In this document: positions 25,836 through 38,725 of the stretch, piece by piece
Layout of the letters: each line of letters opens with the position of its first letter
How positions within the stretch are numbered: position 1 is the first letter of the stretch
Sequence record: PP886230
Length of the DNA: 64,000 bases
Reading direction: 5' to 3' (one strand)
Source: Escherichia phage vB_EcoM_E9.1
Made by a program: the position numbers and the translations under genes
Notes under the pieces: model-generated
What the model saw: only the letters and a program-made list of their open reading frames with translations
Told to the model about the DNA's origin: nothing
Databases searched by the model: none

Positions 25836-27005
25836 CTAAGCAGAAGGCATATCCTTCATTTTAATAAATGAAAATTGTGTACCAGTATTTGTGGTTTGAT
25901 CAGTAAAATATGAATTACTACCAGCCCAGTACAATTCATTATTAACTATACAATATATAACAGAACTCGAACTCTGTGAATACACACGACTTATATTTGA
26001 TGGTTCCACTCCAGTACTGAACTGAACCGAACCCAACTGTGAACTTGGTATCACATCAGTTGGTCTACCTAAACCATTAACACCAGCCCCACCACCACAT
26101 GTATATACCCCAGTACTATCAGTTGATATATTAACATAACCATTTCCGGCATTTTCAAATAGTATTTCACTGGGAACAACACCAAATCCTGTAAGATCTA
26201 TTTTCCTGAATGTAGTGTAAACAGTAGAACCACCAACACCTCTTCCACCATAATCATTAGAACCAGCCATATAGATACTATATCCAGAACTTCCTAAACA
26301 TAATAACTGTACGTTGTCATATAATATTTGCATAGATATAACGTTATCAGGAATACTCAATACCGTAAAAGTAGTTAAAGAAGAACTTCCAATATTACTA
26401 CCAACCGATGTTCCACATCTGTAGTACTTACCGCCTTTTATATAATGGAACGATGAACCGCCTAACTTATGTGCTCCTATTGCACTTACCCCAGTATCTA
26501 TAAGAATGGGAGATACAACTTTGTTATTAACACCTAACTCAGATCTACTGTTCATACCGAACCCATATAAACGACCATCTAACATCAATATTAGTGTACT
26601 ACCGGAAGTACCCGCTGACGTAAATTCTATATTCTTTATTTGCGACACGTCAATACCTACAAATAATGAAGTTACTTCAGTCCAGTTAACATATGAACCA
26701 CTAGCCCCAAAATATCCACCCATGTATAGACCTGCACAATATAACTTATTATCAACAGTCTTTATTAATGTACCGGATACACACGCCCAAAAATCATCAA
26801 CTTCATAGGGTACATGTACCCAACCACCTAATACATCACTAGCATCCCCTGTACCTAATTTATAGTTCGAACCAGAACCACGCATGTACATATTCCCTGT
26901 ACTATAAAGTAATCCGACATGTAATTGACTACCATCCAATTTCTTTATTTCAGGAAGAGTTGGTTTAATATTTCCGTACTTTAACATTCTTCCAAAAGGT
27001 AACAT
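25836..27005 (-). CDS. leader-tagged RCC1-like beta-propeller protein
   Basis: N-terminal MLPFGRMLKYGNIKP; G-x-N-x-x-G-x-x-G-x-G repeats. Confidence 0.7.
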   Translation of the reverse strand: MLPFGRMLKYGNIKPTLPEIKKLDGSQLHVGLLYSTGNMYMRGSGSNYKLGTGDASDVLGGWVHVPYEVDDFWACVSGTLIKTVDNKLYCAGLYMGGYFGASGSYVNWTEVTSLFVGIDVSQIKNIEFTSAGTSGSTLILMLDGRLYGFGMNSRSELGVNNKVVSPILIDTGVSAIGAHKLGGSSFHYIKGGKYYRCGTSVGSNIGSSSLTTFTVLSIPDNVISMQILYDNVQLLCLGSSGYSIYMAGSNDYGGRGVGGSTVYTTFRKIDLTGFGVVPSEILFENAGNGYVNISTDSTGVYTCGGGAGVNGLGRPTDVIPSSQLGSVQFSTGVEPSNISRVYSQSSSSVIYCIVNNELYWAGSNSYFTDQTTNTGTQFSFIKMKDMPSA

Positions 27006-27013
27006 ATTCCCTC

Positions 27014-28189
27014 CTATTCTGGTAAAATCATTTTCTTCATTTTAACTTGTTGTGTACCCGGACTCTGTTCCTGAAACATAGACCCATTACCACACCAGTA
27101 CACCTCATTAGTCCCCACTAACGCGTATAACACACCAGAACCACCTTGTACTGCAAATGCATTAACATCTGGAGCAATATCCATATCCTCATATTGTACT
27201 TGGTGGTAAGAAGATCTTTCTGATGCACTAGAAGGAGGCCAACCCAGAGGAACACCACTACCACATGTATAAAGTTTACCATTCTGTGTCATTGCCATTA
27301 TAAAATAATTCAAACTGTGGTTATTCATCGAAGCAGCATCTGGTATAATCCCACTAATTGCGGGAGTAGCACTAAATGGACTCATGATAATCGTAGTGTC
27401 TCCATACCCTATTCCTAAACAATAATCAGTGTTTTTTCCAGCCGTATATACTGTAATATTACCATTATTCGATGTAAGTACTGAAGTCGTTTCAGTAGTA
27501 CATGAAATACCAATAACTGTTCCTGATATATCAGTACTTACTGTAAATGTGGATAGTTTAGATGAACTTGTACCTAGGTTATAACTTGCATTATTACCAC
27601 ATCTGTAATATTGTCCATTTTTTACAAAATGGAAAGCACCACCCGACTGTGTTCCTGCGATTAAAGTAACACCCGTGTTAATCAAAATAGGTGTTGATTG
27701 TATTCCAGTAACACCCAATTCACCCCCAGCATTACGGCCTATCCCATATAAGTTACCATCACTTAACAGAATTAATAAAGAACCATTAAATGCGGTAGTT
27801 TCGGTAGAAGCTATATCTTGAACTGTAGTAAGGCTTGGAATTGTAGACAATATAGATGTAATATTAGTCCATCCAGGAACAGGTGATGCAGATACACCGA
27901 GATAGTTCATTTGCCCTGCTAAGTAAAATTCTCCGTCAGTCGTAAGTATAATTGTCCCTGCGAATAAACACCAAACATTAGAAACTTTATATGGACAAAG
28001 TACCCACCCATTTTGTACATACTCAGTACTATTATTTCCTAGCATATAATATGCACCACGCCCACGTAGATATAAGTTACCACTATCAAATAACATACCC
28101 ATATGTGTTACAGATGTACTAATCTTTAATACACCCGAAGGTGCAGGTTTAATATTCCCATACTTAACCATTCTTGCAAAAGGTAACAT
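27014..28189 (-). CDS. leader-tagged RCC1-like beta-propeller protein
   Basis: MLPFARMVKYGNIKP leader; stop 8 nt from next start. Confidence 0.7.
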   Translation of the reverse strand: MLPFARMVKYGNIKPAPSGVLKISTSVTHMGMLFDSGNLYLRGRGAYYMLGNNSTEYVQNGWVLCPYKVSNVWCLFAGTIILTTDGEFYLAGQMNYLGVSASPVPGWTNITSILSTIPSLTTVQDIASTETTAFNGSLLILLSDGNLYGIGRNAGGELGVTGIQSTPILINTGVTLIAGTQSGGAFHFVKNGQYYRCGNNASYNLGTSSSKLSTFTVSTDISGTVIGISCTTETTSVLTSNNGNITVYTAGKNTDYCLGIGYGDTTIIMSPFSATPAISGIIPDAASMNNHSLNYFIMAMTQNGKLYTCGSGVPLGWPPSSASERSSYHQVQYEDMDIAPDVNAFAVQGGSGVLYALVGTNEVYWCGNGSMFQEQSPGTQQVKMKKMILPE

Positions 28190-37546: not shown

Positions 37547-37615
37547 AGTTCCTCCTTTATCATTATACTATATTTAATACAAATAAGAAAGCCAGTATCA
37601 AGTACTGGCATCGTA
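37547..37615 (-). promoter_or_regulatory. cassette spacer: hairpin, -10 TATAAT, RBS
   Basis: same conserved spacer. Confidence 0.55.
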
Positions 37616-38725
37616 TTACTTGGGTAATGGAATTGTGGTCCATCTATTTGCGGCAACGTCACCTGGTACATATGTAGGACTACCACTTACAGCAATAGTT
37701 TCATTACCATCATATACAACACTGAAGTTTGTGCACGTATACAACGCTGCGGCATCTGGATTGTAATTTTCAAGTGTTAGTGTATTGGTGAACAAATTCA
37801 ATGCAGTAGTTGAGCCGTTTTTACCATATGCACCTGTAGTATATATCTTTCCTTCTGTTGTTGAGTACATATTAACATATGACCCAGATGATGATTTAGC
37901 AATTTTATCTATCTTGCTATCTATTGTTTTAGAGTTAAATTGAAATGGATATACCTGTACGTTAGTATCTAAACCATTTCCCAGTTCCCCATTTAACTGC
38001 CACCCTGTGTGGTACATTCCCGCATTTGTATATGCAAGCGTACTATACGCATTACCACCCATTATTTTAGTGCCAGATAATTTTAAACCAAACGATGTCC
38101 ACTTACCAGTTTCATTTCCTATGGAACCATAAGCACTTGTACCACACGCACGAAGCTCGCCATTTGACGTTAGAAGCACTGTATTATTAACGTTACCAAA
38201 TATATCAATAACCTGATTAGTGCCATTATTCAGTACTGAAGTAAAAGTACTCTGTGAGTAAGTACTACCTGAACCAACAGAACCATTTGTGTTCATACCT
38301 CTTCCATATACAATTTTACCATCAGCACTAACATAGTGCATTGAATCAAAACCAATGGATATCATTTTAATATCAGATATATCTGGAAATGAAGAAGTTA
38401 CATCTACTCCACCTAGTGGAATTGTATTATTTCCTAAACCTAATGAGACATTAGTTCCGTGCATTATAAATTTATCTTCTTTAAAATATAAAATATTATA
38501 TCCACCAGCCCATGCATTATTAACGCCATTTGTAATCAGTACCCATTTATTTTGTGTAGTAGTTCCAGTAATATTTAACTGTTGATAGTTATTGATTCCA
38601 CAACCATATAGCGATCCATCACCATATAGTACATATAAATTATCATATCCTGCAATAACTTTCTTTATTTTTTTGGGTACAGGTGCTACATTCCCATACT
38701 TTAACATTCTTCCAAAAGGTAACAT
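37616..38725 (-). CDS. leader-tagged RCC1-like beta-propeller protein (first cassette)
   Basis: leader MLPFGRMLKYGNVAP; divergent promoter region upstream. Confidence 0.7.
   Translation of the reverse strand: MLPFGRMLKYGNVAPVPKKIKKVIAGYDNLYVLYGDGSLYGCGINNYQQLNITGTTTQNKWVLITNGVNNAWAGGYNILYFKEDKFIMHGTNVSLGLGNNTIPLGGVDVTSSFPDISDIKMISIGFDSMHYVSADGKIVYGRGMNTNGSVGSGSTYSQSTFTSVLNNGTNQVIDIFGNVNNTVLLTSNGELRACGTSAYGSIGNETGKWTSFGLKLSGTKIMGGNAYSTLAYTNAGMYHTGWQLNGELGNGLDTNVQVYPFQFNSKTIDSKIDKIAKSSSGSYVNMYSTTEGKIYTTGAYGKNGSTTALNLFTNTLTLENYNPDAAALYTCTNFSVVYDGNETIAVSGSPTYVPGDVAANRWTTIPLPK

Follow-up and report, generated by a model that had tools for sequence, protein, structure and literature searches.

Short shared N-terminal addresses on variable cargo are already known in phages. 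In T4, the capsid targeting sequence (CTS) of IPI, IPII, IPIII and Alt is a peptide of ~10 residues at the extreme N terminus of unrelated proteins, which ends in L/I-x-E and is removed by the prohead protease. Phages with multiple receptor-binding proteins (RBPs), such as CBA120, G7C, phi92 and RaK2, carry tail-fibre and tailspike anchors that are folded, usually trimeric and tens to hundreds of residues long, and cargo of the tube lumen of extracellular contractile injection systems such as Photorhabdus virulence cassettes (PVC) and antifeeding prophages (AFP) bears poorly conserved N-terminal packaging signals of ~20–70 residues. Here we analyse a 64,000-nucleotide stretch (hereafter the window) of Escherichia phage vB_EcoM_E9.1 (PP886230), a genome of the Asteriusvirus jumbo coliphage type (slurp01/121Q/JP4-like), in which the genes of a tandem array share a short N-terminal leader beginning MLPF. 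We favour, with confidence only slightly better than even, the reading that this leader is a docking tag specific to the clade, by which exchangeable modules with lectin-like folds would be brought to a single common site on the virion. What appears to be new is this motif, its breadth (at least 10 body families, up to 17 genes per genome, several genera among the 350-kb phages) and the connection with virion proteomes. No mention of the MLPF motif was found in papers on 121Q, phAPEC6, CBB, JP4, fEgEco12 and fENko-Kae01 or in a comparative review of jumbo phages.

Like the T4 CTS, the leader is a brief N-terminal peptide common to hypervariable cassettes whose 5′ ends are conserved, and its carriers are found in the particle; unlike the CTS, it lacks a conserved Glu or cleavage motif, shows no sequence similarity to the T4 peptide and precedes low-copy bodies of 170–670 aa with lectin-like folds. 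It shares with RBP anchors a conserved N terminus in front of a variable binding C terminus, several paralogues per genome that are exchanged horizontally as modules, and a proposed role in docking. However, it is only 12–15 residues long, has a predicted local distance difference test (pLDDT) score of 44–64, makes no tertiary contacts in two models and precedes apparently monomeric globular bodies. PVC/AFP signals are likewise disordered N-terminal stretches on unrelated cargo of a contractile-tail particle, but the leader is short and sharply conserved and its particle is a DNA phage.

In the docking reading, the tag would comprise residues 1–12, M-[L/I]-P-F-x-R-h-h-x-Y-[G/A]-N, with a short linker rich in Pro (often A-P-x-P) behind it, and would act as a short linear motif outside the protein's own fold. 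It would bind one shared virion site of Rak2-like jumbo phages (Asteriusvirus, Mimasvirus, Munch-like and Kaldavass-like) and so recruit changeable small single-domain binding modules (RCC1 and Kelch propellers, ConA-like/Laminin-G jelly rolls and glycine-rich domains) as low-copy accessory virion proteins, most plausibly surface adhesins, possibly on or with hair-like fibres. A cassette in the window would usually be its own transcription unit, made up of terminator hairpin, TAAATA-N3-TATAAT, AAGGAGG and leader, and its ~110-nt 5′ block would double as homology for cassette shuffling and homogenisation.

The array occupies the only minus-strand block of the window (24.6–38.7 kb) and comprises 12 tandem cassettes. 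Phage slurp01 matches 24550–25850 at 100% identity, whereas SHEFM2K, SP27 or JP4 come nearest elsewhere. A six-frame regex scan for LPF[GAS]R returned 12 matches, all on the minus strand at 25.7–38.7 kb and none elsewhere in the 64 kb; each directly follows an ATG, and AAGGAGG precedes every such ATG. Eleven genes are intact (25836–38725; ATGs at 38725, 37546, 36296, 35085, 33905, 32694, 31474, 30212, 29403, 28189 and 27005), with leaders of the form MLPF(G/A)RM-h-x-Y-(G/A)-N in front of 10 RCC1-like propellers (369–400 aa) and 1 glycine-rich body (245 aa). A preliminary description made from the sequence alone had given all intact cassettes a common 15-residue pattern: all 11 fit it over residues 1–12, and past this point it breaks down in the glycine-rich copy (30212), which reads N-K-I-E at residues 12–15. 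The interval it drew contains the 11 intact genes and misses a twelfth, split cassette (24611–25763, ATG 25763). In array order, the cassettes are as follows.

Cassette 1, 37616..38725, minus strand: RCC1-like propeller, 369 aa; leader codons 1–15 at 38681–38725 (MLPFGRMLKYGNVAP); first array gene, promoter-like motif 38743–38757, hairpin absent.
Cassette 2, 36368..37546, minus strand: RCC1-like propeller, 392 aa; leader 37502–37546 (MLPFGRMLNYGNEAP); hairpin 37591–37609, promoter-like motif 37562–37576.
Cassette 3, 35094..36296, minus strand: RCC1-like propeller, 400 aa; leader 36252–36296 (MLPFGRMVKYANIAP); hairpin 36341–36363, promoter-like motif 36314–36328.
Cassette 4, 33976..35085, minus strand: RCC1-like propeller, 369 aa; leader 35041–35085 (MLPFGRMIRYGNIVP); no hairpin or promoter block, ATG 8 nt past the cassette 3 stop, only the ribosome-binding site (RBS) shared.
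Cassette 5, 32766..33905, minus strand: RCC1-like propeller, 379 aa; leader 33861–33905 (MLPFARMVKYGNIAP); hairpin 33951–33969, promoter-like motif 33922–33936.
Cassette 6, 31546..32694, minus strand: RCC1-like propeller, 382 aa; leader 32650–32694 (MLPFARMMNYGNIAP); hairpin 32741–32759, promoter-like motif 32712–32726.
Cassette 7, 30284..31474, minus strand: RCC1-like propeller, 396 aa; leader 31430–31474 (MLPFARMMNYGNIAP); hairpin 31521–31539, promoter-like motif 31492–31506.
Cassette 8, 29475..30212, minus strand: glycine-rich protein, 245 aa, phrog_4474; leader 30168–30212 (MLPFGRMVKYGNKIE); hairpin 30257–30277, promoter-like motif 30229–30243.
Cassette 9, 28261..29403, minus strand: RCC1-like propeller, 380 aa; leader 29359–29403 (MLPFGRMVKYGNIAP); hairpin 29447–29469, promoter-like motif 29420–29434.
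Cassette 10, 27014..28189, minus strand: RCC1-like propeller, 391 aa; leader 28145–28189 (MLPFARMVKYGNIKP); hairpin 28232–28257, promoter-like motif 28207–28221.
Cassette 11, 25836..27005, minus strand: RCC1-like propeller, 389 aa; leader 26961–27005 (MLPFGRMLKYGNIKP); abuts cassette 10, no hairpin or promoter block, only the RBS shared.
Cassette 12, 24611..25763, minus strand: RCC1-like body, split; partial leader MLPFGRIITSSKKN (MLPFGRI) without Y-G-N; hairpin 25808–25830.

Mechanical open reading frame (ORF) calls over-extend several cassettes (32766–34067, 433 aa; 28261–29421; 29475–30230; 33976–35106) because the conserved block is open in frame. The resulting starts read MNKGGS..., MNKEGI... 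and MATIGGN..., and the 433-aa ORF runs from 34067 through the conserved block. Public annotations carry the same over-extension (phAPEC6 gp002, JP4_581), masking the common N terminus.

The preliminary description also held that the leader is under selection at the protein level and is not only a recombination footprint. The synonymous differences that it cited are present (TAT/TAC at Y10, GGA/GGG at G11, CCT/CCA/CCG at P15), and a codon-level alignment of the copies showed that their DNA is not identical throughout: pairwise identity at positions 1, 2 and 3 is 0.86, 0.93 and 0.57 in codons 8–12. The corresponding values for codons 2–7 are 1.00, 0.92 and 1.00. Codons 1–7 and ~75 nt upstream are homogenised within the window, and the third-position identity of 1.00 over codons 1–7 places the first 21 nt in the homogenised DNA block. 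Evidence for selection within the window therefore comes from codons 8–15 only, because codons 1–7 carry no synonymous variation.

Relatives settle the matter. Arrays retrieved by BLAST with the 5′ block were compared at their N termini, and all annotated genes in Salmonella phage Munch (17 genes), Klebsiella phage fENko-Kae01 (13), coliphage EJP2 (14) and Erwinia phage Kaldavass (8) begin M-[LI]-P-F-x-[RKQI]-[MIL]-h-x-Y-[GA]-N, with a 67-aa fragment in fENko-Kae01 as the one exception. Many of these genes are translationally coupled, and their upstream DNA is not shared. Together with GAP32, CBB and about nine uncultivated phages, these four share the form M-[LI]-P-F-x-R-h-h-x-Y-G-N. Across 73 leader copies from six genomes, P3 (CCT 36, CCA 31, CCG 6), F4 (TTT 66, TTC 7) and Y10 (TAT 41, TAC 32) were each retained in 73/73, N12 in 72/73, G11 in 67/73 (GGG 35, GGA 21, GGT 6, GGC 5) and R6 in 63/73, through AGA, AGG, CGT and CGA. 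Identity at positions 1, 2 and 3 of codons 2–7 is 0.85, 0.96 and 0.57 in Munch and 0.71, 0.87 and 0.58 in CBB; over codons 2–12 of Munch, CBB and an uncultivated relative, identity is 0.7–1.0 at positions 1 and 2 versus 0.5–0.66 at position 3. Excess third-position variation is seen in Munch, EJP2, CBB and UViG_3300012988, where flanking DNA is unconserved. DNA upstream beyond the RBS falls to 0.31–0.37 identity, near the 0.25–0.37 of divergent body codons, and between genera the 5′ block is ~70% identical or undetectable. Orthologues of cassette 9 (29403) retain the leader down to 41% body identity (for example, MIPFVRILNYGN), the leader supplies 6 of the 10 invariant columns in a 20-sequence RCC1 alignment, and it is absent from cellular RCC1 homologues. 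Judged by codon usage, the leader is conserved at the protein level: protein-level selection is settled because distant relatives keep the peptide while its synonymous sites vary freely and flanking DNA is not conserved.

The DNA around the window leaders nonetheless has a history of its own. A promoter-like motif, TAAATA-N3-TATAAT, followed by an RBS lies upstream of nine cassettes; in eight of these nine a GC-rich hairpin ending in a T-run (GCCAGTAC...GTACTGGC) comes before it. Hairpin, motif, RBS and leader form a homogenised block of ~110 nt that extends from the hairpin to about codon 12. TAAATA-N4-TATAAT is not enriched elsewhere in the window, and since TAAATA-N3-TATAAT occurs only upstream of the nine cassettes, no tie to known late genes could be made. 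Synteny with 121Q is broken into segments (27015–29467, 87% identity; 29360–31550, 94%; 32651–35095, 99%) whose high-scoring segment pairs overlap inside the shared 5′ block (29360–29467, 31424–31550, 32647–32767), and cassette 6 occupies another array position in 121Q. Because synteny breaks inside this block, a recombination or gene-conversion footprint is really present beside selection on the peptide.

It could be argued from these data that the leader has no protein function and is the coding end of an expression or recombination block, kept by gene conversion or a translation-initiation constraint and carried passively in cassette swaps. Codons 1–7 without synonymous differences in 11 copies, continuous with the conserved upstream block, would fit this explanation, as would breakpoints against 121Q that fall exactly in the 5′ block, a cassette 12 that keeps only codons 1–7, and the finding that no sequenced relative spans ≥80% of the array. 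However, cassettes 4 and 11 keep the leader with only the RBS in place of the upstream block, as do most genes of Munch, Kaldavass and CBB. Residues stay fixed while synonymous codons vary freely, the leader occurs on isolated genes outside arrays, and it is kept across genera whose DNA is unalignable. A purely DNA-level cause is thus largely refuted as the sole explanation, and we regard it as highly improbable.

Structure prediction sets the leader apart from the bodies. The RCC1 cassettes match Pfam WD40_RLD/RCC1 models (PF25390 and PF00415/PF13540) with E values down to 1e-30 (PF00415 and PF13540 above their curated cut-offs in most cassettes, PF25390 below its 150-bit cut-off) and fall in PHROG 4219; no NCBIfam name was obtained for the cassette proteins. 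Profile searches matched solved RCC1, UVR8, HERC2 and RPGR structures with E values down to 5e-35, the matches beginning at profile position ≥17, that is, past the leader. AlphaFold2 modelled cassette 9 (mean pLDDT 90.2, predicted template modelling score 0.87) as a seven-bladed propeller of ~28 strands over residues 21–380; residues 1–20 have pLDDT 48–61, versus >90 for the propeller, and do not pack on the body. The RCC1 assignment concerns the predicted fold only, and a role in chromosome condensation or as a guanine nucleotide exchange factor is not to be assumed. We rejected the idea that the leader is the closing strand of the propeller on the basis of the AlphaFold model and its occurrence on non-propeller bodies.

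The glycine-rich cassette 8 gave a similar picture (mean pLDDT 91.0, body >90, residues 1–19 at 44–64 and unpacked). Its protein has no Pfam or NCBIfam match but 179 homologues at E ≤ 1e-3, many with PF21722; the best fold matches of the model, a cyanophage fibre, a mycobacteriophage tail tip and the ALK glycine-rich domain, are weak (TM ~0.27) and only suggestive. In both models the leader is predicted to lie outside the fold. Since its most conserved segment is unpacked in both, it behaves as a short linear motif that needs a partner.

Virion incorporation, export and docking, offered side by side in the preliminary description as roles for the leader, are not equally likely. An export signal of the Sec, Tat, lipoprotein or a phage-specific type has a single point in its favour, namely that the leader is N-terminal and common to all carriers. 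Inspection of the 11 leaders, made without a dedicated predictor, found no hydrophobic core of ≥7 residues (R6 and K/N/R9 interrupt it) and no twin-arginine, lipobox or A-x-A motif. The carriers moreover sit in virions, whose assembly is cytoplasmic. The leader sequence lends export no support, and its probability is close to negligible.

A partner shared by all carriers is suggested by how the leaders evolve. Paralogous bodies within the window are 23–36% identical, and some Munch genes are nearer to window genes (up to 41%), which places the duplications before these phages diverged. Between window and Munch orthologues, the body is 36.5% identical (paralogues 26–30%) and leader identity is 0.59, versus 0.85–0.86 among paralogues within either genome. 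Lineages have their own states: I2 is found in 17/17 Munch copies and I7 in most of them, P/S5 in every Kaldavass copy and the majority of those in CBB, and the window has L2, G/A5 and M7. By these comparisons a leader resembles the others of its genome more than that of its orthologue, and leaders evolve in concert. Gene conversion can account for this in the window. Munch-like copies differ synonymously and have no homologous flanks; co-evolution with a single common partner is therefore the more economical explanation there, although it is not proven.

The partner need not be structural. The leader could be an intracellular tag read by a phage factor, such as a chaperone or assembly factor for beta-rich proteins, a Clp-type unfoldase or protease or another enzyme, with presence in the virion secondary or independent of the leader. 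Concerted evolution would suit any single shared reader, the leader is strictly N-terminal and disordered in the models, and Clp-like proteins occur in virion preparations (CBB_104, ClpP; fENko-Kae01 CDS_264, ClpA-like). Nothing, however, links the leader to any such factor, a Met-Leu/Ile N terminus is no N-degron unless processed, and all carriers examined by mass spectrometry (MS) are in particles, for which a structural interaction is the simplest account. We consider an intracellular reader unlikely.

The suggestion in the preliminary description that the leader is fused to unrelated bodies proved to hold well beyond the window: it is found on at least 10 BLAST-level families and replaces a different native N terminus in two of them. 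We grouped 123 non-redundant leader proteins into 10 BLAST clusters, most of which matched RCC1, Kelch or, in several clusters, Laminin_G_3/ConA-like families in Pfam, with no match for three; the bodies (RCC1, Kelch, ConA-like/Laminin-G, glycine-rich or unassigned) are 170–670 aa long and are typical ligand-binding scaffolds. In GAP32, an RCC1 body (GAP32_001) and a ConA-like body (GAP32_002) both have the leader. CBB, which has no RCC1 genes, carries it on CBB_144 (glycine-rich), CBB_247, CBB_536/537, CBB_549/553, CBB_548/551 (Laminin_G_3) and the Kelch propellers CBB_550/552/554. Two of these, CBB_144 and CBB_247, stand singly outside arrays, amid nucleotide-metabolism and recombination genes.

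A 30-position leader profile gave 53 matches at E ≤ 1e-3 among 1.84 billion representative proteins, 47 of them starting at residue 1. Of 18 matches read individually, 3 were repeat junk and 15 had the leader at the true N terminus, two of these after a mis-called start. In IMG/VR, a loose back-translated pattern matched more than once only on contigs of 349–378 kb (121Q, GAP32, CBB and nine uncultivated genomes, 2–11 copies each) and one 109-kb fragment; ~30 single matches, which had no RBS and a tiny ORF or none, are chance, and a stricter degenerate DNA pattern was too narrow, matching only 121Q. On the sequences surveyed, the leader is portable between unrelated bodies, clade-restricted and strictly N-terminal.

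Outside this clade, homologues of two body families start with a different peptide, M-x-E-x-[LM]-[LM], in place of the leader (variants MLELL, MIELL, MFEMML, MEEMLL, MNEMLM and MLESML). It was found on glycine-rich proteins (PVP-SE1 gp018 and 21 of 25 metagenomic homologues) and ConA-like proteins (4MG gp182, CR3 gp255 and PCH45), in Vequintavirinae and other phages, and several carriers are annotated as virion structural proteins. Like the leader, it stands at residue 1 of glycine-rich and ConA-like bodies; it differs in sequence and in phage clades. Different N-terminal peptides on the same bodies in each clade are as expected of an address matched to a clade-specific reader, and M-x-E-x-[LM]-[LM] may be an analogous tag. 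In a separate observation, a Logan-assembly protein of 206 aa is a glycine-rich variant that precisely lacks the leader (MNKGG joined directly to NKIEYKPHGEQ) and has an internal deletion; its window counterpart, read from the upstream in-frame ATG, is MNKGGSMLPFGRMVKYGNKIEY... The Logan protein could be a real variant or an assembly artefact.

The range of bodies also admits a quite different role. Kelch, RCC1 and ConA/SPRY-like folds serve as substrate receptors of eukaryotic ubiquitin ligases. The tag could load swappable target-recognition modules that enter the host with the DNA, with the peptide tethering them to a phage machine, for example of the Clp type; on this view the array would supply adaptors for an arms race, which mark out host defence proteins for destruction, and the modules would not be adhesins. 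We view this as a long shot.

Published virion proteomes connect leader-bearing proteins with the particle. Six phAPEC6 proteins, gp003, 005, 006, 007, 009 and 010, are among 62 virion proteins identified by electrospray ionization tandem MS (PMC7247149, Table 1); their masses and N termini match leader genes, and all six begin with the leader. The first 45 residues of cassette 11 are identical to phAPEC6 gp010. In CsCl-purified JP4 virions, JP4_577, 581 and 582 were detected (PMC12648861, supplement), the last of which is identical to the product of cassette 9 (29403). GAP32 gp001 is structural by MS (PMC5259590), and GAP32_002 is annotated as a virion structural protein. The CBB structural proteins found by MS that have no GAP32 counterpart are 144, 247, 536, 537, 551 and 552 (PMC5259590), and the leader is present on 6/6 of them; the CBB authors expected the whisker genes to be among the CBB-specific structural genes (PMC5259590). 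In fENko-Kae01, the glycine-rich CDS_525 (267 aa) gave 17 spectra and the RCC1 proteins CDS_517, 518 and 526 gave 2–3 each (PMC11218385, Table S3). Leader carriers are therefore detected in five published virion proteomes (phAPEC6, JP4, GAP32, CBB and fENko-Kae01), which, with the position of the leader outside both AlphaFold folds, bears out the tag-like behaviour attributed to it from sequence. Expected leader tryptic peptides are MLPFGR/MLPFAR and those of the YGNIAPVPVVPTIK type.

As to where in the particle the carriers reside, a head-packaging signal of the T4 CTS type would bring them into the prohead core or inner body, possibly to be ejected with the DNA as a variable host-directed set. 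T4 internal-protein loci follow the same logic of a short N-terminal peptide, unrelated hypervariable cassettes and conserved 5′ ends. An inner body exists in 121Q and phAPEC6, and the arrays of CBB, GAP32 and fENko-Kae01 adjoin the terminal repeat. Virion association of the carriers also fits packaging in the head, yet inner-body proteins should be abundant and the peptide counts are low. Neither a conserved prohead-protease site (position 9 is Glu in 10/73 copies and K/N/R in the window) nor sequence similarity to the T4 CTS is found, and propeller and jelly-roll lectin-like bodies are typical of external binding modules. Loading into the head is in our judgement unlikely.

For docking on the outside of the virion, we infer that the tag itself mediates incorporation, that its partner is a virion protein and that the modules face outward and bind the host surface. 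The modules are probably external adhesins because their folds are lectin-like, because Laminin-G/ConA lectin domains of jumbo phages go with tail fibres and virion components (PMC7824862) and because the weak fold matches of the glycine-rich model include a fibre and a tail tip. Hair-like fibres on head and tail are described for 121Q, phAPEC6 and CBB.

Several observations weigh against this interpretation. MS establishes presence in virion preparations and not the leader as its cause; peptide counts are low (1–5), and the fENko-Kae01 preparation is impure, with polymerases present too. In phAPEC6, a role for the RCC1 proteins in organising inner-body DNA has been put forward as speculation (PMC7247149), an assignment that would favour packaging in the head. 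The link to hairs is a correlation only, and GAP32 has three leader genes and no reported whiskers. Structure searches yielded no solved structure that places these proteins in a virion, and no partner. For residues 1–7, DNA-level and protein-level causes are inseparable in the window, where the first 21 nt are homogenised, and cassette 12 keeps leader residues 1–7 only, yet is under purifying selection.

If the tag proves sufficient for incorporation, it would explain how up to 17 different small binding proteins are placed on one Rak2-like virion, give a way into the hairy appendages of 121Q, phAPEC6 and CBB, which await an explanation, and provide 12 residues with which foreign proteins could be displayed on, or loaded into, virions of jumbo phages. 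The 'chromosome condensation' annotation of these genes is misleading and without evidence. The second motif on two body families is a hint that large myoviruses may generally recruit accessory virion proteins by N-terminal tags particular to each clade, a means so far overlooked.

The split cassette 12 consists of a 74-aa ORF (25539–25763) and a 298-aa ORF (24611–25507), of which the latter lies in the +1 frame. 121Q, SHEFM2K and PBECO4 have the split as well (96% nucleotide identity with PBECO4). Non-synonymous and synonymous rates (dN/dS) against PBECO4 are 0/0.105 for the first ORF and 0.0088/0.155 for the second, both ratios being ≤0.06. The degraded leader had suggested a decaying pseudogene with relaxed selection; we rejected this, given that the split is kept in PBECO4 and purifying selection acts on each half. 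When one base is skipped at GTA-TGA-G (junction near 25507–25545), the reading ...NVEDLWVRV-ESTLIKKKDNTMWYAGNG results, which is colinear with intact paralogues without gaps; cassette 12 may work as a split gene or undergo a programmed +1 frameshift.

Leader-gene clusters adjoin the direct terminal repeat on the minority strand in CBB (343–356 kb), GAP32 (1–2.4 kb and the genome end) and fENko-Kae01. The minus strand of CBB holds only 34 of 554 ORFs (PMC5259590) and 10 of its 11 leader genes, the exception being CBB_144. In the window, GC skew is negative over 24–44 kb (24001–44000 examined), though minus-strand coding is confined to 24.6–38.7 kb; from 38.8 to 44 kb the ORFs are small and on the plus strand, and AT skew is strongly positive. 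Immediately upstream of the array but on the plus strand, opposite to it, 38829–40663 holds at least eight small paralogous ORFs (61–75 aa) in tandem, which resemble each other at their starts (MNxxxYY..KL) and C termini (VLKLI).

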